From Aplysia californica (Eukaryota): a DNA stretch of 64,000 nucleotides. The stretch's first letter is position 1, and each line of letters starts with the position of its first letter. The notes below the pieces were generated by a model that was not told the DNA's origin, searched no databases, and saw only the letters and a program-made list of their open reading frames with translations. The stretch covers positions 861,942 to 925,941 of the forward strand of contig NW_004797343.1 in assembly GCF_000002075.1 (NCBI RefSeq), written 5' to 3'. Of the stretch, positions 7,130 to 49,900 are shown in pieces. The translations under genes were made by a program, and so were the position numbers.

Positions 7130-9129
7130 GTATGATACAGAAATTTGTCTACTTGCTTTCAATATGAGAGAGAAACCCAGTTGAACTCTGCAATGCCCAT
7201 GTTGACATTTGTCATTTGTTGAGTTCTGAGTTTCACTCCTCCGCCCTCTGCTCTGCAATGCCCATGTTGACATTTGTTGAGTTCTGAGTTTCACTCCGCC
7301 CTCTGCTGCGCTGCCAGATCTAGATCTAGATTCTATATCTAGACTATAGAGTCTGATCTAGATTCTAGATCTAGATTAGATATATACCCAATAATGATCG
7401 GAATAAGACAACGTCAATAAAAAAAGGAGTCAAATCCTAGAGCCTAGAGCCTAAGTAGCCTAGATCTATCGCAAATTTATATCAAGAAACTGAGAAAGCT
7501 TCCACAATTCAGGGAACGGAGTGTCTACGTACACGGTAACCGGGCACCTCCGCTGGCCTCAGTGTCTACGTACACGGTAGGCTAAATGGCAACCGGGCGG
7601 TAGCAGGAGGAGGAACACAAGAAGAAGAAGAAAAATCTAGTAGTAGATCTAGTATGGAAGTGGCTATTCTCACCCGGGGTGAGAATAAAAATACGATCTA
7701 CATGTCACCCCGCGTGAGACTTGCCAGCGTAGGCTATTCTCACCCAAGACCTGTTTTTTCCTCATTTCGGAATACTTTCTATCGGTGTGGATGATCAAAT
7801 TGATCAAAGCCAAGAAAAATTCCTTACGTTATAGACAAAAGTAAGCTAATTTGATCGTCTTCAAAGATGCTACATGGCTATTTCAGGGAGGACTTCCGTA
7901 ACGAGCGACCACTATTTATTCAAGATTTAACTTGTTGAGCACCACAATACTTATGGGAGACCGAAAGCCACTGTTATACTAGATCTACCTGGACAGGAAA
8001 AAATTACGGTCGTTTGCGCAGTTTGAGTTTTAGGCCCTGTTCAACCATTTGAAGATGGCCGTCGTTATTCGGACCCGAGTCCGAATAACATTTTTTCATA
8101 TTCGGACTCGAGTCCGAATAAAAAAAATTCTTATTCGGACTCGAGTTCGAATATGAAAAAATGTTATTCGGACTCGGGTCCGGAAAAAAGGAAGTGTCTT
8201 CGTTCTATAGATCTAACGTTCAGTGCTTCCAATTTTCCGCCTTTTTTAAGTTTTCCCCACACCTTATCTGCCGCTCCAATGCCCGCCGCCTCATTGATAT
8301 GCCCCCCCACGTTTCCCACTTTCATTGTTGTAGAAAAAGGTAAAATTGAAGATTAGCAGACCACCTGGCATATTATGAGCTGTGTAAAAAAAAAGGCCGG
8401 CACTATTTCTCCGAACGTTCGGGAAAATAAAGCTGGGCACTATTTCTCCGAACGTTCGGGAAAATAAAGCTGGGCACTATTTCTCCGAACGTTCAGGAAA
8501 ATAAAGCTGGGCACTATTTCTCCGAACACTCTGAAATATCATCCTTTCCCCCAAATTTCGGATATTATATAGATCTATAATTATAGTATGGGCCTACCAA
8601 AGATTGTTCGTATACAGTATGGTTCAATCGGTCCAAAAAATGTCCGCCGTAAATATTTATATAAAGAAATGCTACAATTCCAAACAGTTTTTCGCTATAG
8701 ATATGACGTGTTGCCTATGAAAGGTGCTGCTTTTAAACGTAATGTGTTGTGTTCACTCGTGTGCTGTCTAGATCTAGATCTACGGAGGGTTATTGATAAC
8801 GACACATAGAACTGGCATCTGCGTTTGTCACTGCTGCGACCAATGTACTGACACTGGCAAGCCCCTTAATGTGTGTGATTCCATAATTTACATGTAATAT
8901 CCTGTACTTTTTTTTAAATTACGCACATTTAGGGTTAAAACTGCCAATCTTCTTCGGACAGGTGGACACACGCCCTTATTTGTTATTGTTTGTTGTTGTT
9001 TATGGGCTGTTCTAATTTTGATTTCTTTCTGTTATGAAACCTTTCTTTTTCACGTTTTTACACTCATCTAAAAATCTCATCTAGACTAGCTGTTGAAAAT
9101 TTAAATAGATATAGACCCAAAAATTTGCT

Positions 9130-9174
<45 letters not shown>

Positions 9175-12100
9175 GTGAGTGTTTGAGTGTGTCTGTGTGT
9201 GGTAGTAAGTGGAGAGTGAGGAGTGTGTGTGTGTGTTTGTTTGTTTTTCGGGCTTTATTTCAGCCTTTATTCAGTAACAGTTCAAAGTATACAAAAATAG
9301 AAACACAGGATCCATTCACTCCAGGACTCATGAGTCATTCGTCTCTTTCAGTTTCACTCTTTCATTCAATTCCCGTGTTCTCTCCCGCGGCTCATCCCCG
9401 TCCGCATGACTTTCATACCCCACCCCATCCCTCCAGGCACACACAAAGAAAATCTCACTTGTTCCCTGCGAACCATGGACAATAATATAGGCAAAACACC
9501 GCCTGAGCTGCATTCCTTTTGTTCGTGAGCTGTGGACCAGGCCAGGGGTGGTCAGTGTCGTCGTCTTTTAGTTGCTGTCGTCTGTGGATACACTCGCACA
9601 TTCTTCCTTTCACCCGCTCTTTCACTCACACTGTCTCTCCATCCACAGTTCAGCTCGTCATACGTTCAAAAGTTGCCCACTAGTTATGTTTAGTTAGTGT
9701 GTGTACATGTGCATGATGGTGGTGGGTGTGTGGTGGGTGTTACTGAAGGTTGTCTGTAGGCGGGCTTGCCATGCGGTACGTGTTCCTTCCCAGACCAGAG
9801 GCAGAATGAAAGTTGGCGCCGAACTCTCGCAATAAATAGGCAAAAAATCACGAGACCGGAAGCCGAAAACCGTTCGGAGAAATAAAGATCGGCACTATTT
9901 CTCCGAACGTTCGGAGAAATAGTCACTTCGAAAAAAAAAAAGACCGATTCGTTCAAATACACAAGCCTGTGTCATATCGATTGTTTACCAAGAAAAAGTT
10001 GTGTTGCTGTGTAGAGCCGAGCATACGGCAACTTTTGATTCCATAGACCAGCGCACAATTCATTACGTATTCATTACGTAGATCTACGTCAAAACTAGCT
10101 TATTATTGTAATAATGATAAGTTGCCAGGGGGGAAAAGACCGACGCTTATGCGACGTTCAAAGCCCGGACCAATAGTGCCCCCCACCACCCTCCCTGACA
10201 CGCACACAGCCACACGTGTGCAGGCCGCCCATCCGACCCCGACACATGCTAACGAGCCATCTTTAATTAATTGTTTCTGATGACCTCTTGATAAATAAAC
10301 ATTTATTAGAAGCGCTATTACTTTTCAGGCCGGCCTCAAATTCATCATAAGATTAAAACTCGGCTCCTGCACAAAACGCCTTTTTGCCCGAAGTGATCCC
10401 GGTCTCTACCCAGCCTGAGGCGAGTCACGAGTGAGGCAGGACAGGAAGCCGGATTCACGAGTCACAGGAAGTCGGAAGTGATGTCATGCTGGACAAGAAT
10501 CAGAGTCCGAATAACATTTTTTCATATTCGGACTCGAGTCCGAATAATCACTTCGTTTGAAGATCTGAGTCGGGAATTAGTAGAATTTACTCAGGGCGCA
10601 GCCATTGTTGACCCCGCATACTTTATCAACTTCCGCTCTTCGGGAGCGCTGGTTTGCCAGGTTTTCGTCGGTTTCCAGCCAAATTTTCACTTTGATTAAT
10701 CCTCCAATAAATAACGAGCGACCACTATGAAACAGGTAGAATAGAGAATTCTGAGTTAAGGGTAGGGGTAGGATTAAGGTTAGTTAGTGTTAGTGTTAGG
10801 GCAAGGGCTAGGGATATGGCTAAGGTTAGAATTAGGGTTAGGGGTAATACGAAACCATTCACAATATAAAATCCCATGGGGGGGGGGGTTATAGGGGGGG
10901 CTTGCCCCCCTATTTACATTATAACAGAATCCCATGGGGAAGGGGGGGATGTAGGGGGGCTTGCCCCCCTATTTTCTCCCCTATTTCTAATACAGAATCC
11001 CATGGGGAGGGGGGGGTTATAGGGGACTTGCCCCCCTATTTACATAACAGAATCCCATGGGGAAGGGGGGGGGGTTATAGGGGGGCTTTCTTTTCTCAAA
11101 ACTAGGTTGATTTGGAATCCCATGGGGGGGGGGGGGCAATAAGGCCCCTATTTTCTCACATTTAGGTAGGGGTAGGGTAGCGATAGCATTAGAATTAGAT
11201 ATAAATCACCTACCTTTTCATGCATCCAGTCCTGGGTAAACCTTGGTGATCTCCTTCAGGAATCGTACAAACTTGCATTTGGCGTCTGCGTTCTGCCGGT
11301 GCCAAATATATTCCGCCAGGTGGGCAGCGAAGTGCTGCTTCTGGGTGTGAGATGACCGCAAACTCCTCTTCACTGCCCACCAGGTAGATTCGATGGTGTT
11401 GGTGTGGGCGCCGGTGTGCGGGTCAACAAAATTCTCCGTGTGGTTGGCGGTCAGGTGTCGGAAACCCTCTCGCTCCAGGCACTCGTAGCTCTTGAAACAA
11501 TCGCTGTAGATTATGGTACCTGGAGCGACGTGCTTCTTGATCAGACTGATGAGGGTATCCTGGGTGCGGTCTTGTACAGGGACAAGGAAGCACTCCTTGG
11601 TCTCTCGACAAATGCCGCCGAACACCCACTGGCCGTCGACCACCCTCCCACGATTATATTTTCGCTTTCCAAATTTGGCTTCGTCGACCTCGACGCTGTA
11701 GTTGGCCCCACCAATCTGCCGCACTTCCTCACCGCAGTAGAGACTTTCAATGATGACCTCTCTGCAATAATTATACAGATCGGCCATCGTTTCCGTACTG
11801 GTCTCGCAGTGGTCAAAGTCTGGTCCTGACGTTTCGCGGATGGCAGTGTCGTAACTACTGCGGTTGACGGGGGATTATTGATTTTTTTTTAAAGACGCAC
11901 GGGGGGGAAGGGGGGGGGGGTGAAGGCAACACCGGATGACAAAAACTAAACTTGGAAGCAGATTTTACTTTTCAGAATTTTGATTACTACTATCTAGATC
12001 TCAAGCTCTCTGCAATGCGCGCGTTGGTGCAGGCCTTGTATGGAATCGGGATCTGTCATACTCAAACCTTGTGAGCCGTGTGTTTGTAACTAAAGGGTTC

Positions 12101-34530: not shown

Positions 34531-36030
34531 AGCCACTTGCAGTTTCCTCCAGTGGCATCGCGTGGGTTGCAGACAAGCATAATTGGAAAGTGAGCAAATG
34601 GGCAATAGGCTTACTAGCTACTATTACGATTTCTAGAGAAAGTCAATAATTAGAATCTGCAGGATATCCCGTAATCTACATCTATAAATATTCACAACTG
34701 TTTCTAGATCCAGATGAAACCCCATAAAAGCTGCAATAAAGTGAAACAATAATAACAGCTCACCATGCTCACAATCTGAGAAGATTTAAAGCTTTCTAAT
34801 TACTTCGTGAAGCACCAGGACATGCTACACAATCGAAGGAGACAACAGTTTCGACCTATTCTACACTTGGTTACCGTAGACCCTACTACTACACTACATG
34901 TTATTTACTATCATTGACTACATGTACTAGTGCTAGTGTAGTAGATAGACTAGTGGAAACTTGGATCAAATTTTTAGCAATTGCACCAAAATTAATGGAT
35001 GCTGCGGAGAGCAGCTTCATGCACCTTTCTTCTTGTGCGGGAAGAACAATGGCTAGTTTTCTCTACAGTGACAAAAATGACTTTGGTGCAAAGATTTTGC
35101 TTGCTCCCAGCAGACGCAACCTCAAGCGGTGAGACGAGCATAAACCCTCCTGTCTCTAGGCCATTTATCGTTGCGTGGAATGTTGATCTAGAGCTCTGAC
35201 TGGTTTAGAAAAATTAGAAAAGGGAGGAAGTGTGTGTGTGGGGGGGGGGGGGGGGGGTGAAGGCCAGGGTTAGGTGGAGCACTAATGGCGCCCCCGCCAG
35301 TTTTCCTCATTCGTTCACACGAAATACCAGACAGAACAGAATTAACAATGGGCGGTAGATCTAATTTCCTTTTCAGTAGCGCAAGGCTTTAGGGGACTGC
35401 AAAGTCCCCGAATAAGCAGCGCCAGAGGACTACGCTGTGCAGTCCCCGAGTGGGTAGCGCTTATGGGGACTGTGCAGTCCCCTATAACAAACTTCCTACA
35501 TTATATTTTATTTGAGGCACACTGCTTATTGATAAACGCAATAGCTTGGCTAAACTAAAGGATAACGTTTTTGTAAAAAATGATTGTTTGAAACCTCATT
35601 TCAGGTGCAGTCTGTTAGTTCTAATAATGGCCCGATGTCTTAAAAATACTGGGATAGTGCTTGGAGCATTATGAATGTCTAAACCGCGAAAATAACCACA
35701 GTAGTCTATAGATGAATGGCAATATTATAGTCATTTTTTGGCATGGGTAGTCAGGCGTGTAAGCGGTAGTGTTTTTTAGCTTAGATATACTGTTCATAGC
35801 ATAGTGTACACAAAAGTCATTAGGGTAGTATTTACATTGTGCAAAAACCACTACGGTAGTCTTTATTGCACGGTAGTGTTCTGATCGTGTTACACCGGAA
35901 CAGCTGATGCTCAAGGGGGTAGTGATGGGCCGATACCACAATTTAGGTATCGATGTTGATACCTAGTACTTTTTCAAGGTATCGATACCGATACCTCGAT
36001 ACCTAATGCTATTGGTAACATACGCCGGGG

Positions 36031-36547
36031 CAAAGATAGTACATAACAAGATGGGCCACTTCTCTCTTTGAGCCAATTAAAAAAGTGTCCTCAAAATTTG
36101 GTGGCGCCCTCTTCACAAAAGCGCACTCTTTGCGAACAGAGTTACCCTACTTGAGTTTTAAAAAATCAAAGTGAAACTAGCAAGTTTGGGGATAAATTTC
36201 GGAAGAACGCTTTTTTAAAATGGTTACGCTGACAAAAAAACCTCTTCCGGAGGAAAGGGTGATGGTTTTCTTCGTTAAATTTGACTTTAGAATGAAAGAC
36301 GAGAGGACATTAAAATTTAAAAAAAAACTAAAACTAGTAAAACTCCGTAAAACTCCGCACTGAACGTACCCGAACTGCTGATGAACAGCAGTCGATCTGC
36401 GCACGCAAGGAGGTGCTATTCCTATTCTTCTTCTGGAAAAACGAAAGAGAGCTTCAAAACAGACTGCAGCGCCATCTGAAGCAAAGAGCATACTTCCTGC
36501 GGACACTTTTTTGGCTGAGTGGCCCATCTTGTTATTCACTATCTTTG
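36031..36547. mobile_element. P-element-type MITE copy 1 (CAAAGATAGT...ACTATCTTTG)
   Basis: ~30-bp TIR; 7-bp TSD gccgggg on both sides. Confidence 0.85.
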
Positions 36548-36658
36548 GCCGGGGGTAATAAGTAAAGACAAAAATACAACTATACTTTTCCAAGTATTTA
36601 GGTAATCGTGTCTAGACAAGTTGTGACTATTTAGCTGAGACTCAAACAAAAATTATTT

Positions 36659-36717
<59 letters not shown>

Positions 36718-36880
36718 ATACCCAAATATGAGAATAAGAACAAAAATTAAGTGAAGTATTGGAGGAAAGTCAACTTTGCAGAAAATGTTAGTATTGGAAA
36801 ATAAAAACACAAGAGTTCTAAAAAGGCAATTCAATTTACCAGATTTTTAGCATCTTTGAATTAAACCAATGAGGATAAAT

Positions 36881-37054
36881 CAGGGTTGTCAGTTAGGATT
36901 TTGCAAAATCACTAGATAGATTTCATGAAAAACTTCTCTCTTTTTGTTAAAAAATCACTAGATTAATTTAAGACGCTTGCCCCCTACGAAAACTTATCAG
37001 TTTTGATAAACAAAACATTTTTCAAGGCCCAAGTCACTTGCTTTGGCAGCCCTG
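36881..37054. mobile_element. Small hAT-type MITE (CAGGGTTG...CAGCCCTG)
   Basis: 8-bp TSD ggataaat at 36873-36880 and 37055-37062. Confidence 0.8.
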
Positions 37055-37067
37055 GGATAAATAACAC

Positions 37068-37562
37068 CAATGATAGTACATAACAAGATGGGCCACTTCT
37101 CTCTTTGAGCCAATTAGAAAAGTGTCCTCAAAATTTGGTGGCGCCCTCTTCACAAAAGCGCACTCTTTGCGAACAGAGTTACCCTACTTGAGTTTTAAAA
37201 AATCAAAGTGAAACTAGCAAGTTTTGGGATAAATTTCGGAAGAACGCTTTTTAAAAATGATTACACTGACAAAAAACCTCTTCCGGAGGAAAAGGAGATG
37301 GTTTTCTTCGTTTAATTTGACTTTAGAATGAAGGGCGAGAGGTCATTAAAATTTAAAAAACCTAAGACTCCGCACTGAACGTACCCGAACCGCTGATGAA
37401 CAGCAGTCGATCTGCGCACGCAAGGAGGTGCTATTTCTATTCTTCTTCTGGAAAAACGAAAGAGAGCTTCAAAACAGACTGCAGCGCCATCTGAAGCAAA
37501 GAGCATACTTCCTGCGGACACTTTTTTGGCTGAGTGGCCCATCTTGTCTTGTACTATCTTTG
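37068..37562. mobile_element. P-element-type MITE copy 2
   Basis: Same TIR; 7-bp TSD ataacac. Confidence 0.85.
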
Positions 37563-37625
37563 ATAACACATAGGTATCGATGTTTAGAGCAGGTATCGGT
37601 AACGATACCGATACCTATAGGTATC

Positions 37626-38120
37626 CAATGATAGTACATAACAAGATGGGCCACTTCTCTCTTTGAGCCAATTAAAAAAGTGTCCTCAAAATTTGGTGGC
37701 GCCCTCTTCACAAAAGCGCACTCTTTGCGAACAGAGTTACCCTACTTGAGTTTTTAAAAATCAAAGTGAAACTAGCATGTTTTGGAATAAATTTCGGAAG
37801 AACGCTTTTTTAAAATGGTTACGCTGATAAAAAACCTCTTCCGGAGGAAAGGGTTATGGTTTTCTTCGTTTAATTTGACTTTAGAATGAAAGGCGAGAGG
37901 TCATTAAAATAAAAAAAACCTAAAACTACGCACTGAACGTACCCGAACTGCTGATGAACAGCAGTCGATCTGCGCACGCAAGGAGGTGCTATTCCTATTC
38001 TTCTTCTGGAAAAACGAAAGAGAGCTTCAAAACAGACTGCAGCGCCATCTGAAGCAAAGAGCATACTTCCTGCGGACACTTTTTTGGCTGAGTGGCCCAT
38101 CTTGTTATGTACTATCATTG
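37626..38120. mobile_element. P-element-type MITE copy 3
   Basis: Same TIR; 7-bp TSD aggtatc. Confidence 0.85.
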
Positions 38121-38545
38121 AGGTATCTAAGTATCGAGTATGGTATCGATACCTACCCATCACTACAAGGGGGTGTAATTCCTATTCTTCTTGAGATTAG
38201 GCCCTAGGCTAAGCTAGAATCATAGAGTGAACCACACACACAATAGCCTAGTTCTGCCCCAGACTACACACTACACTACATTAGATCTAGACCTAGATTC
38301 TAGAATCTAAATTCTCTAACACACAGCATTATGATGATGATGACCCTCTGTGTGACTCGGCAGTCGACAGCATGAGCAGCAGTGTGATGAAACAGCTGAT
38401 CAGTATTAGTATCAGGACTCTGGACTCCCCCCTCCGCCACCTCCGCCTGCTGTCAACTTTGAGTTCACCAAAACAGCATTCTTCTTGTGATTACACAGCT
38501 AAATCTAGATTTAGACCATCTAGGTTTTCTGTGAGAACAAGAAAC

Positions 38546-38565
38546 ATGAGTACAAGAGCCAAAAA
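38546..38565 (+). CDS. Thioesterase-like gene, candidate exon 1 (MSTRAK-K)
   Basis: aacATGa start and gtaagg donor; phase 2 matches the acceptor phase of the next exon. Confidence 0.55.
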
Positions 38566-41500
38566 GTAAGGATTAAATAGTTGGAAGTGCCTATTTGCAA
38601 CGCGGTGTTCCAATTAGACTTTTAGTGAAGTGCCAGTGCTATAAAACGCAGCGTTGCAATTAGCGCCAGATAAAACGCTGTATTGCCTTGTGTAAAATAT
38701 CAAGCTTTATCTGCACTTCGTTATCGGTAGTTCTGATGGTCAAATGGACAGCGCGTCTGCGCTTGAAGTCAAACCATTTTTTTTTTGGAAGTGCCTATTT
38801 GCAACGCCGCGTTGCCATAGCGCCAGTGCTAAAAATAAAACACTCTATGTGTTAGCCTAGGCTACATCATGAAGCTTAATCTACCCTTCGTTGTTGGAAG
38901 TTCTGATGGCCAAAGTGACAGCGCGTCTGCGTTTGAAGCCAAACTATTATTTTACGAAGTGATTATTCGGACTCGAGTCCGAATATGAAAAAATGTTATT
39001 CGGACTCTGATTCTTGTCCAGCATGACATCACTTCCGACTTCCTGTGACTCGTGAATCCGGCTTCCTGTCCTGCCTCACTTGTGACTCGCCTCAAGCTGG
39101 GTAGAGACCGGGATCACTTCGGGCAGAAAGGCGTTTTGTGCAGGAGCCGAGTTTTAATCTTATGATGAATTTGAGGCCGGCCTGAAAAGTTATAGCACTT
39201 CAAATAAATGTTTATTTATCAAGAGGTCATCAGAAGCAATTAAAGATGGCTCGTTAGTATGTGTCGGGGTCGGATGGGCGGCCTGCACACGTGTGGCTGT
39301 GTGCATGTCGGGGAGGGTGGTGGGGGGGGCACTTTCGGTCCGGGCTTTGAACGTCGCATAAGCGTCGGTCTTTTTCCCCCCGGCCACTGATCATTATTAC
39401 AATAATAAGCTAGTCTTGACGTAGATCTACGTAATGAATTGTGCGCTAGTCTATGAAATCAAAAGTTGCCGTATGCTCAGCTCTACACAGCAGCACAACT
39501 TTTTCTTGGTAAACAATCGATATGACACGTACAGGCTTGTGTATTTGAACGAATCAGACTTTTTTTTTTTTTTTTTACACAGCTCATAATATGCCAGGTG
39601 GTCTGCTAATCTTCAATTTTACCTTTTTCTACAACAAAGAAAGTGGGAAACGTGGGGGGGGGGGGGGGGCGTATCAATGAGACGGCGGGCATTGGATAGG
39701 CAGATAAGGTGTGGGGGAAACTAAAAAATGGCGGAAAATTGGAAGCACTGAACGTTAGATCTATAGAACGAAGACACTTCCTTTTTTCCGGACCCGAGTC
39801 CGAATAACATTTTTTTCATATTCGGACTCGAGTCCGAATAAGAATTTGGAGTCCGAATAACGACGGCCATTATTTTATGAGCGTGGGTTTGATCCCGGTC
39901 CTTATAGTATTTTTTTTTTTTCTTTTTTTTTCCGAAGTGGCTTGCCGTGCTTGGCTAGACTGCCAGTCTAGCCGTACTTAGATCTAGGTTTGGCCCTATC
40001 GACTCAAACCTGTTGAGTACACAGGGCTCATTAAAGATCTAGATCTAGATCTTGTAATTCAGGTTTAAAATTATAATGCTATCAGTAAGGCACCTTTTGG
40101 TTTTTTGTTTGAATACAAATACTTTAGGCATTGCAAACAAAAAATTTCATTTACATTTCAGCCATCATTATTATTAAGTACGGCTAGCCTGGCTGTCTAG
40201 CCGTCCTTAAGTACGGCTAGCCTCGTCGTCACGGCTAGCCAAGCAGTGTAGCCGTAGAGGAGCTCGAAAGTAGGCCTTAGTATAGCCTACATATATATTA
40301 TATACTTTTCCTTAATAAAAATACCAATTAGGTCTGATTAAAGTTCAATACAGTGGAGTCCACTTATAACGAGTCTGGAAAAAATGAGAAGTCTGTTATA
40401 AAGGCACTATTCTAAATCCCCGTTTTTTTCTTCTCTTTACCTTTGTTAAACAAAATACTGCTATAGCGCTATCAGACACACTTGCGAGTCGGTTATAGCG
40501 GAATATTGCTGCTGCTGTGCACATGGTATATAGGCCAATACATAATGCAAGACCTCGCCAGTTGAGAAACTTGTTGCTAGTCTTGCGAACAAAGAATAGG
40601 AGAGCCCATGTGCGTCAACAATGAAGGGCGGAGCAACTGAGTAGGGAGGGTCTGGCATGCGCAGACAAGCAGAACGCATCGCGTGGTAGGCCAGTTTAGA
40701 TTATCAAGGCCTGCCATGCCTCTCACTTCTCCGATGCGGGGATGGAGAGGTCACCGCAGTGTGATGGATGGAGCGAATGTGTGACGTGCGCAAGCAGACA
40801 ATGCACCACAGGGTGGGATGGGGTGGGGGGAAAACACAACGGACGAGTTAGCCCAGAGCCCTTTCTTTCTGATCGCCAACACCGAGCTGTCAGTCCACAT
40901 CGCTAGATCTAGCGCTAGAGAAACAAACCTGATTCGATTTTTGATCAAGTAATAGACCTAGGGGTCATGTTGAAATAAAATCATCATCACGGGGGATAGC
41001 AAAAGGAAAAACAGAACACCAAACTCAAAGATTAGGCCTACTTTACAGTTTCCCTTGAATTTATTACTGTACTGGATCCGGTATAGCGAGAATCCTGCTA
41101 TAACGGACATTTTGCTTTAGTCCCCTCCCTCTCGTTATAACAGGATTCCATTGTAGTGACTTTCCTTGGTCTGTGAGTCTAATTCTTATTTTTTTAAAAA
41201 CCCATATATTTTAGACTGGAGAAGAAAAAAAAAGGCCGGCACTATTTCTCCGAACGTTCGGGAAAATATAAAGCTTTGCACTATTTCTCCGAACACTCTG
41301 AAATCACATCCTTTCCCGCGAATTTTGGATATATAGATATATATTTATATTATTACCCTTCTCCCTCCGAGACCTAACATTGACAACACACTCTATGAAA
41401 CATTACAGAAACTGCAGCAAACCTGCACTTATCACTACATGGCATTGGACAGAAGGGGGAGAGCCCAGCTGTTGCTGGATCGATAACAACAACAACAACA

Positions 41501-47500: not shown

Positions 47501-49900
47501 TAGAAAGAAAAGACTTTTGTAAATATACTACAGTCTAGCATACACATAGCGAAAATACACAACGAAACATGCACATTGCAAACAGATTTCAGGTCCCAAA
47601 TATTTTTTAATGTATTCTTTGTATATATATATATAAAACAAATACGAAGCGAAATAGTACATAGTGTAAAGATTTACGCATCCCACCGGTTTTGCAATGT
47701 GTGTGCTAGACATTGGTAACTCAACCATCGTATTTCTTATTGTACTGACTGGTTGTTTTTTTTACTGTATTTTGATTCCTTCCAGCTAACCCACAGGCAC
47801 AGAGCCTGCTCTTCGTTGCCTTGTCTGCCCGTGTTTTCATGTTCCACGAACCTTACAATGATGCTGGTGATATATTCATGGATTGGGCTCGAACCACGTC
47901 AGACCGTCTTATATTCATATCTTCAACTGAAGTGAGTTTTTCAAGGGCCTTGTATGATCCAGAAGTGAAGAAAACTGAACTTGATGTCAAAATCAAACTG
48001 GGTTACGTGGGAAATGCCTCAGTTGCCATGGTCACAGAACTGTATTCCCCTGACAACAAGGATGAGCCAATATGCTCCCAGGTTGCTCAAACTGTGTCGA
48101 TAGACAAGAGCACAAGGAAACCCACGCCATTCCAGGATTGGTTCAGAGACAAGTTTGTGGGGAGAGGTATACGAGACAGGGGTCTCGTCATTCGACCTTT
48201 TGAAAGGCCAGAAAATGCATTCCCTTACGAACTCAAGGTGAGTACCTACCCTATTGTTACTGATAAGTCTCTGTAAGTAAAAAGTGAGTGTATGGTTTTA
48301 ACACCACTATCAACACTGCAAGGTTATTTAAGAGGGGGGGGGGGGGGGACATCTGAATTTAAAGTCTGTCTTCGATAGGCCAAAGCCAAATGGATTGTGA
48401 GCCAGCCTTGAAAACTCTACTTAATGACCCTAGCTCAAGAATGCCCAGTCTGGGATTTGAGCCAGGGCCATCCACTCTGTAGTCCAGCATGATACTTTCT
48501 GAGCTAATGGAGCGCCTTAAGTCTCCGTGTATATCTTTGTGTACTGTCTAGCACGTAAACATCCTGTACTTCGTGGTTGCCGCGCGCCAGTTCTAGTAAA
48601 CTACCAAGAAATGGTGTTTCTTGCCCCGTTCTTTGAAAAATAGGTAAATTTTAGGTAATATAATATTTTTACACTAAGTAATGAGCCATTTCTCATTTCA
48701 TGGTTATTAGTAAATAATGTTACTTTACGGCCTACTGATTTTTATCAAGATAATCTGTGGAAGTGCAGCTTTATACCAATTCCAGTGTGAGCTAAATTAT
48801 TAAAGTTATGGTGAACTTTTTTTTAATGCTTAAAAGTACTTGTATGTTGAATCTAATGGAATTTTTGCATTCAGCATGCTAAATTACATTATAAATTTAA
48901 ACGAATCAGTCTCATATCTGTAATTATCATTTAATTTTATGAAAGTTAACACTTACAAAAGATGTGTTTTTGCACATTCTTTTTGCCATCGTGCGAAATG
49001 AGGCTTTCAGTCATTTTCACGATGGCATACTTCCAACATTCTTTTTTCTATGCTGACCCCCAAAAAAATTGAGCTTTTACCCTGCATTATCAACATCATG
49101 TAGTTTTGACTTTGCTGGATAATAACTTTCCAAGCCTCTGAAATTGGCATTTTGTGGTGTAGCAAGTAAAATTTGTTCACTAAAAAGCCATTTTCATATA
49201 ATTTTATGTGTTTACAGAATAATCGGAATTATAAGCTCAAGGATTTTTTAAACGTTAAGTCTTTGTATGCCTCAATATTATCCTTAACTTCAAGAAGACA
49301 TAATATATGAGTATGTGCATTGTCATTACATGATTTTGTGGCTGTTCAAAGTCCTGCTTTTTTAACATACGCTCCATGAAATGTTCTACATTTTGATTGA
49401 ATTTCAACAGTGATGACTTTTTATTGGCTAATTTTAATGTTTTAAACGGTGAGTTTCATCATTTTTACTGCTCTTTCTGATCCATTGAAGAAAATCTACT
49501 TTTGGGAAATTTTAATTTTTTAATTTGTGGTACCTGCATGATTACTTTGATAGCATGCTTTTCTGTATATTTGTAGGTTCGATGGAGTGACACAGATGGT
49601 TATAACCATGTCAACGCCTTAAAGTACATCACATTTGCCGAGGATGCTGTGCATGCTGCTTTGGTTCACTCTGAAAGTGGGGAGAAGACTCACAACACTG
49701 CTCTGAGAGGCCTTACAGAGGACTTTCTGATTAACGGTTTCAAGAGTATGCAGATTTCATTTCAGAATGAGAGTTTGGAGGGTGAGAATCTTGTGGCTTA
49801 CGTGTGGCAGCCGGAAGAGGAGGATCCTTCTGTCGTTAAATGTTCTATAGAGAGGAATGATCAAAGGATTTGCCAGCTTCGATTTGAGTATTATGACTAG
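38546..49900 (+). CDS. Acyl-ACP-thioesterase-like double hot-dog protein, spliced: join(38546-38565,44851-44975,47786-48237,49577-49900), ~306 aa
   Basis: GT-AG introns with compatible phases (2,1,0). Motifs include LGYVGNAS, V.IDKSTRKPTP..DWF and VRWSDTDGYNHVNALKY, which resembles the D-x-D-x-x-x-H-V-N thioesterase motif. Exon 1 is the least certain. Confidence 0.8.
38955..39868 (-). mobile_element. Element A copy 2 (inverted, without nested element B)
   Basis: TSD attatttta at 38946-38954 and 39869-39877; closely similar to the reverse complement of 8057-8394 plus 9931-10555. Confidence 0.88.
40351..41153. mobile_element. Tc1/pogo-type MITE, longer copy of 16415-17020
   Basis: TA|CAGTGGAGTCC...GGATTCCATTG|TA. 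Confidence 0.8.
41234..42065 (+). mobile_element. Partial element B copy joined to a CTAG-element end (41729 onward)
   Basis: Matches 8395-8830, including the junction to ctagca..tgcgtttgtcgcggccgcga. Confidence 0.7.
42120..43220 (+). mobile_element. Degraded Nimb/I-clade LINE (RNase H and C-terminal region)
   Basis: IFTNDPKS, SIFSVEA, ILSDSLS, WLPSHVG, RLRIGHTFLTHKYLL; near-copy of 22165-22820. Confidence 0.8.
43349..44765. mobile_element. Two oppositely oriented ~430-bp TIR elements (~43349-43779 and ~44337-44762)
   Basis: Shared terminal motif ..catggtgaaatcagg..c.tgtcaa and mutually reverse-complementary interiors; superfamily unassigned. Confidence 0.55.
44851..44975 (+). CDS. Thioesterase-like gene exon 2 (DLSFWQDNFKQ...PGLTPESFNRY)
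   Basis: tttttcccag acceptor, open frame, gtgaaa donor, phase joins exon 3. Confidence 0.75.
45231..45505. repeat. Minisatellite, 11 copies of a 25-bp unit (RTCACAACATTTGTCTCWTGCTTTG)
   Basis: Head-to-tail units with no spacers. Confidence 0.95.
46770..47497. mobile_element. Tc1/pogo-type MITE with both TIRs (family of 12137 and 60046)
   Basis: tagtagtctccgcctaagatcc...ggatcttagtcggagactgcta. Confidence 0.75.
47786..48237 (+). CDS. Thioesterase-like gene exon 3 (first hot-dog domain and linker)
   Basis: ttccag acceptor, 150 open codons (track ORF 47821-48276), gtgagt donor. Confidence 0.88.
48285..48517 (-). mobile_element. Degraded tRNA-derived SINE; possible relative at ~52640-52835
   Basis: Minus strand ggcgctccattagctcag...ggctcaaatccc A/B-box-like head. 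Confidence 0.45.
49577..49900 (+). CDS. Thioesterase-like gene exon 4 (second hot-dog domain, VRWSDTDGYNHVN...YYD*)
   Basis: ttgtag acceptor, open to TAG (track ORF 49649-49900). Confidence 0.88.
   Translation, partial: VRWSDTDGYNHVNALKYITFAEDAVHAALVHSESGEKTHNTALRGLTEDFLINGFKSMQISFQNESLEGENLVAYVWQPEEEDPSVVKCSIERNDQRICQLRFEYYD

Follow-up and report, generated by a model that had tools for sequence, protein, structure and literature searches.

A P-family MITE of Aplysia californica inserts preferentially near the word ATCGA and hence at the ends of a hAT-type MITE, a targeting pattern of which we are highly confident. In the window, as we call the analysed stretch of 64,000 nucleotides, one such host element carries three copies of the P-family MITE, which lie there because the family inserts near a short word that is packed into the host ends. 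Both the restriction to the host ends and the bias towards ATCGA are features beyond the sequence-only reading of this nest.

Architecture of the nest

The host element lies at positions 35920-38165 on the plus strand, has TAG...CTA ends and is bordered by the perfect 8-bp target duplication CAAGGGGG (35912-35919, repeated at 38166-38173). Its empty length is approximately 716 bp, and 88 exact left ends and 182 candidates were counted genome-wide. The three P-family copies, all on the minus strand, are located at 36031-36547 (copy 1), 37068-37562 (copy 2) and 37626-38120 (copy 3), the strand being given as the orientation of the transposase gene, since the coding element has its 5' end in common with the high-coordinate end of the MITE. 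Each copy has 30-bp TIRs and a perfect 7-bp target duplication of its own, GCCGGGG at host positions 105-111, ATAACAC at 614-620 and AGGTATC at 670-676, and after each insertion the host sequence is back in register. The proposal of three separate P-type insertions within one hAT MITE is thereby confirmed. The three copies are 91.9-95.8% identical to one another (BLAST). A host on contig C1 is occupied at the site of copy 2 as well, the insert being just 95.8% alike, and the host sites most often reused by the family are 669-676.

ATCGAT/CGATAC arrays are found beneath both host ends, the left one at 35931-36002 (host positions 12-83) and the right one in two parts, the inner at 37572-37617 and the outer, together with the right TIR of the host, at 38128-38165. 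The segment 36881-37054, which had been taken for a fourth insertion, is an older CAGGG...CCCTG element that has an 8-bp duplication. It is a fixed component of the host family instead: of 39 other host copies, 34 contain it and the remaining five are cut or deleted before that point.

The likely first coding exon of a neighbouring thioesterase-like gene (38372-38569, plus strand) is given as context outside the mechanism. Its first in-frame ATG is at 38372, which places the end of the nest about 0.2 kb from the start codon and not about 0.4 kb as previously estimated. Later exons of this gene, at approximately 47776-48276 and 49577-49900, match PF13279 and PF20791, and the first exon encodes an Arg/Ser/Leu-rich leader that, judged by eye, resembles a mitochondrial targeting peptide. 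In two other samples, this exon lacks 6 bp at 38402, which leaves the frame intact. Database hits of the gene include a cluster dominated by Mollusca, a weak pointer to a molluscan source. A contig from a possible source sample covers 38112-38758 with zero differences, the host right end was also found in a second sample, and an RNA-like contig spans 38169-38566, its first 39 letters matching neither flank. No sample contig bridged the nest junctions at a 31-letter standard, and one raw RNA run showed no depth on the thioesterase-like exon.

All genome-wide counts refer to the 927-Mb assembly, in which 2,484 first-look candidates of the P-family MITE were found. At uniform density, the chance of three copies in one 716-bp host is about 1e-9, which excludes chance clustering for the nest and, with it, a random dispersal dense enough to make three copies per 2 kb expected.

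Superfamily assignment of the inserted MITE

The P-family MITE has CA...TG termini with short TIRs on all three nest copies and 631 exact left ends genome-wide. An exact 7-bp duplication was found at 77 of its 90 free insertion sites, free meaning neither in a host nor beside another MITE copy. The target shows a 13-bp palindromic preference, with T at -3, +1 and +7 and A at -1, +5 and +9. A search for the transposase partner yielded 65 PF21788 matches, of which 39 were retrieved with 10-kb flanks; L134 is the sole locus among these 39 that shares an end with the MITE, several others having different TIRs. The first 111 bp of L134 are 91% identical to the high-coordinate end of the MITE and are followed by THAP exons and a 702-amino-acid P-transposase ORF that matches PF21787, PF21788, PF21789, PF12017 and the PDB entry 6p5a (E=1e-37). 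L134 is single-copy, with the 91% similarity at one end and an interruption on the 3' side, and a search of the 14 kb downstream did not reveal its 3' end. A relative on C18 shares this 5' end at 74% identity; in another, on C90, it is the opposite end of the MITE that is matched, likewise at 74% but with the outer TIR lacking. As a THAP/P-transposase family of the genome has matches to both of its ends, the MITE can be classified, from sequence, as a non-autonomous member of the P superfamily. The assignment made earlier from the window is thus upheld, and the search for a THAP-domain P transposase with shared ends recovered the L134 family. An intact, two-ended active master was not found among the 39 of 65 matches checked with their flanks. 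The candidate transposase gene itself contains a copy of the MITE, in intron 1 (L134:1790).

Other P elements are present in the genome. A second P family, with 8-bp duplications, has 1,608 exact ends and includes a transposase-coding element (L131:2647-7603); its mini-elements of 33-38 bp (L201, L242, L075, L377) are barely more than two TIR tips, and some of them lie within the first P-family MITE. Two-ended P elements of about 5 kb with CATAGA termini and 8-bp duplications were also observed (L129, L130, L142, L140). Three near-identical copies of one family among these, with an 892-amino-acid open frame in one of them, suggest that this family was recently active.

The host family and its BED-finger relatives

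The 8-bp duplication of the host is perfect in the window; among 55 other copies, 35 have it with at most one mismatch, one has 7 bp and 19 could not be resolved. Coding elements with PF05699, and in L364 also PF02892, likewise end in TAG...CTA and bear ATCGAT arrays. The 8-bp duplication, together with TIRs and subterminal repeats that are common to elements with hAT transposases, identifies the host MITE as a likely member of the hAT superfamily. The best match to a same-end autonomous partner, among the 30 of 149 hAT loci examined, was 47 bp at 79%. Coding hAT elements with ATCGAT end arrays are L364:6143-8390 (C367), L365, L362 and L363, and a BED finger is found in L364 and L365, which are candidates for the source of a motif-binding protein. 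In hAT elements generally, the transposase binds subterminal repeats, and the ATCGAT arrays are putative binding sites of the transposase of the host clade. Two BED-finger proteins are described with similar words, DREF binding TATCGATA and BEAF-32 binding CGATA, and DREF also has a hAT dimerisation domain (PMC7471704). Host copies are often paired within 5 kb (C587, C1039, C20, C160, C198, C445), which may reflect local hopping of the hAT system.

Bias towards the host and its ends

Hosts were gathered by host sequence alone, which gave 69, of which 56 were full-length in the retrieved DNA, or 55 after exclusion of the window copy. The P-family MITE was found inside 21 of these 55 hosts, within 60 bp outside in seven, and in either position in 24; with 13 partial hosts added, 28 of 68 carry it. 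A uniform spread of the 2,484 copies would put 0.1 in these hosts, so the excess is approximately 200-fold (209 on 22 raw hits, or about 190 once a gap-split copy and the co-amplified C29/C6 pair each count as one). The part of the earlier proposal that invoked a preference for the host element is therefore supported. Counted from the MITE side, nine of 93 consecutively listed ends (C1-C46) lie in or beside a host. Strict target specificity as in Dada, with most copies at one fixed position, was not seen, 77 of these 93 copies being neither in a host nor beside another MITE copy. As a control, an abundant MITE-like family of the window was used (2,011 candidates, palindromic GACTCGAGTC end repeats, copies at 38954-39570, 9931-10556 and 8070-8394). 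The P-family MITE was inside or adjacent at none of its 29 other loci (p=6e-6), and one insertion into this family was found from the MITE side (C587).

When the insertions within hosts were mapped, including those of the window and leaving aside two flank matches outside the P family, all 31 fell at host positions 41-118 or 614-686 of 716, that is within 120 bp of the ends, and none in the middle (positions 121-609, about 490 bp). They occur in both orientations. The same two end regions contain the arrays, which hold 17 of the 19 ATCG/CGAT sites of the host. Outside the host, the first 60 bp hold 1.2 MITE copies per kb; the density is down to 0.04 per kb between 60 and 300 bp and to 0.02 per kb further out, these two values corresponding to one copy per bin, against a genome mean of 0.003 per kb. 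At the measured per-host rate, about one host with three hits is expected among 90-180 host copies, so the nest locus requires no special cause, and the promoter preference that had been offered as an alternative is unneeded.

It is highly improbable that the pattern reflects a plain target-site preference or an assembly artefact. The right host end does score slightly higher on the target matrix than the flanks (mean odds 1.5 versus 0.9), but the left end scores 0.8 and the middle, which is never hit, 1.0; the matrix was thus rejected as the cause of the end bias. Gaps do exist in the assembly, but the nest copies differ from one another both in duplication and in sequence, and insertions at the sites of copies 2 and 3 recur in other hosts. 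There is similarly very little probability that the count is inflated because hosts already bearing a MITE were duplicated as composites. One pair, on C29 and C6, does share site, orientation and inner mini-element at 98.0% identity, but the in-host insertions fall into 19-20 distinct site and orientation classes, and the other same-site pairs are 79-97% alike, with closer relatives of each copy elsewhere. The C29 and C6 hosts (C29:1238006 and C6:2949603) are probably a three-layer composite copied by the hAT system as a single unit.

Relationships among copies

Relatedness was assessed in 155 full P-family MITE copies, each being ranked against 154 others. MITE copies cluster genome-wide, and in one tandem pair on C26 the two copies are mutual nearest relatives, both of which would agree with local hopping, in which one copy seeded its neighbours. 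The three nest copies are not sisters, however: they rank one another 44th to 121st of 154, and their nearest relatives, at 98.2, 99.2 and 99.6%, are each on another contig. Among 42 neighbouring pairs less than 10 kb apart, only one consists of mutual nearest relatives, and the median identity of such pairs (95.3%) is not above that of random pairs (96.2%). The local hopping that the sequence-only reading offered as one option for the nest is therefore contradicted, by a tree of copies as well as by the nearest-neighbour comparisons, and we consider it very unlikely. Some tandem copies are split by one 7-bp duplication, and some copies sit in the TIR of another copy at GTACTAT (C26:808679-810177, C6:2264619-2265625, C15:1282125-1283600, C292:687022), a site that resembles the preferred target of the family.

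A short motif near insertion sites

At free sites, ATCGA is the top enriched 5-mer, with 69 occurrences versus 17.8 expected. It was found within 50 bp of 33 of the 90 free sites, compared to 133 of 1,305 control windows (10%; p=2e-10). In the consecutively listed free set the counts were 22/77 versus 72/1,287, and the effect persisted after removal of motif arrays (20/71 versus 79/889). In successive 5-bp bins from the centre of the duplication, ATCGA occurs 0, 1, 11, 5, 9, 2, 8, 3, 4 and 0 times, with a far mean of 1.1; it thus peaks at 10-35 bp and is close to zero below 10 bp. The extended consensus at free sites is GWATCGATWC, without orientation bias. The bias is partial, since 57 of the 90 free insertions lie more than 50 bp from any ATCGA. 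Solitary motifs could be unrecognised, decayed hAT ends. Other TAG...CTA elements with ATCGAT arrays (on C8, C15 and C18) are likewise targeted at their ends.

Among related words, TTCGA and CTCGA are raised about 2.3-fold at free sites and the CUT-type word ATCAAT is weakly enriched (12/90, p=0.01), and ACGT, CCGG, GCGC, AACG, CG and WGATAR showed no enrichment per free site. CpG richness and GATA sites were accordingly rejected as attractors, as was the word GATGGGC, which is common to both TIRs and has no occurrence within 100 bp of free sites. The host itself showed no significant targeting to the motif (9/45 host flanks versus 81/597, p=0.26); its own insertion site compared to the interior of the MITE gave a similarity score of 48, the shuffled maximum being 45. 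In the second P family, ATCGA was found at one of 31 ends, against a 5% background. The contrast between the two P families is modest (p=0.02), and the 31 ends include both sides of some insertions.

Possible mechanisms of target choice

Three mechanisms were considered for the motif bias. In the first, to which we give even chances, the P transposase is tethered by a BED-finger protein, either a hAT transposase or a DREF-like protein, on ATCGAT. In the second, the P transposase itself would contact ATCGA, at a distance of 10-35 bp from the cut site, by means of an unoccupied THAP domain or some other DNA-binding surface. The match to hAT binding sites would then mean that hAT ends are exploited as safe sites, or would be a coincidence. 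Such direct contact agrees with the short and sharp reach of the effect, with its being specific to one of two P families of the same genome, with its presence at solo motifs and with the THAP domain of the transposase. The MITE ends, however, which the transposase must bind, contain no ATCG or CGAT (there is one internal site only) and share a different inverted repeat, which argues against the THAP domain reading ATCGA. By analogy with Drosophila P, this shared repeat is the likelier THAP site. Direct contact is accordingly a possible explanation, though a less probable one than the tether.

In the third, factors bound to the motif would maintain an open or promoter-like state at these spots, and the preference of the MITE would simply be for open chromatin, like that of Drosophila P elements. 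Hotspots of the latter are described as coinciding with BEAF-32, ORC2 and low nucleosome density (PMC3240664), and the distance between the nest and a likely start codon is about 0.2 kb. We regard this third mechanism as unlikely, as the host copies examined contain just three non-P insertions longer than 40 bp compared to the 31 of the P-family MITE, the motif excess is absent in the second P family and the effect is gone beyond about 40-60 bp. The lack of the motif in the MITE ends and the BED-finger link to the motif together favour tethering over direct contact and over general openness. One observation sits less easily with the tether: inside arrays, 13 of 31 insertion sites are within 7 bp of a motif, a poor fit to a protein covering it. 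Nor did the analysis identify an orthologue of DREF in the genome.

Starting from the observed enrichment, end restriction, spacing and non-sisterhood, we infer the following protein-level steps for a tethered P transposase. The MITE would be mobilised in trans by a THAP/P transposase of the L134 family, to which it is homologous and which is presumed to be active; for a P-type transposase, GTP would be the expected cofactor. Target choice would have two layers, the weak palindrome around the 7-bp duplication, seen directly at the insertion sites, and nearness to ATCGA or GWATCGATWC, seen as a statistical tendency. The host arrays, which are the subterminal repeats of a BED-finger-coding hAT clade, would act as binding sites. 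A hAT transposase or a domesticated BED protein similar to DREF or BEAF, sitting on them, would recruit the P transposase. Since the array survives an insertion, the same spot could be hit repeatedly, and nests would form without local hopping. More speculatively, the P transposase may dock on the hAT transposase, or on its DREF-like descendant, on ATCGAT repeats, thus parasitising hAT ends by using the DNA-binding protein of another superfamily as a landing beacon. If this were true, the same link could explain the preference of Drosophila P for DRE/BEAF promoters.

Comparison with known systems

These findings bear on how P-type transposases choose their hotspots beyond a weak target palindrome. 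The Aplysia MITE is a natural family with an approximately 200-fold bias to the ends of another transposon and a measurable preference for sites no more than about 40 bp away from a five-letter word, and the second P family, without this bias, provides a built-in comparison in the same genome. In the open-access literature, no earlier report was found of a P-family element that favours hAT ends or ATCGAT. One mobile element is seen to carry portable landing pads for another, also next to genes, and this may point to a way in which DNA transposition becomes semi-targeted in nature.

Galileo is described as having a palindromic target preference around its 7-bp duplication, and Galileo/1360, which make 7-bp duplications, have in common with the Aplysia MITE the CA...TG ends, a palindromic target extending past the duplication and a THAP/P transposase (PMC4168063). 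The TIRs of the Aplysia MITE are short (30 bp), unlike those of Galileo/1360, and for these elements the accessible part of the same source describes neither a second motif 10-35 bp away nor a bias to the ends of another superfamily (PMC4168063). Plant MITEs are reported within or next to other MITEs above chance, and a safe haven has been proposed (PMC3695323, citing Jiang and Wessler 2001). Those nests mostly involve one family, with no motif or end restriction described in the part of that article available to us (PMC3695323), whereas the nesting reported here crosses superfamilies and is confined to subterminal arrays. Dada transposons are aimed at multicopy, low-harm sequences such as small RNA genes, in which they use fixed positions (PMC3706591, PMC8869645); the Aplysia MITE, in contrast, is loosely biased towards the vicinity of a motif, with about nine in ten copies outside the host.

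The tethering of piggyBac by BET proteins (PMC8151067) is an example of the type of mechanism proposed here, in which a bound protein of the host guides a DNA transposase. What BET proteins recognise is acetylated histones and not a DNA word, however, and the piggyBac interaction has been demonstrated (PMC8151067), whereas the Aplysia tether is suggested by motif identity and spacing. In Drosophila P, hotspots are hit repeatedly and tandem copies are split by one duplication (PMC5932611). The Aplysia MITE likewise shows independent repeat hits and tandem copies with a single intervening duplication (on C26 and C6). Drosophila P hotspots also overlap the CGATA-binding BED protein BEAF-32 (PMC3240664), to which the ATCGAT link of the Aplysia MITE is similar. 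The Drosophila hotspots are, as far as these sources describe them, promoters and open chromatin over kilobases (PMC5932611, PMC3240664), whereas the hotspot reported here is the end of a mobile element, with the motif within about 40 bp.
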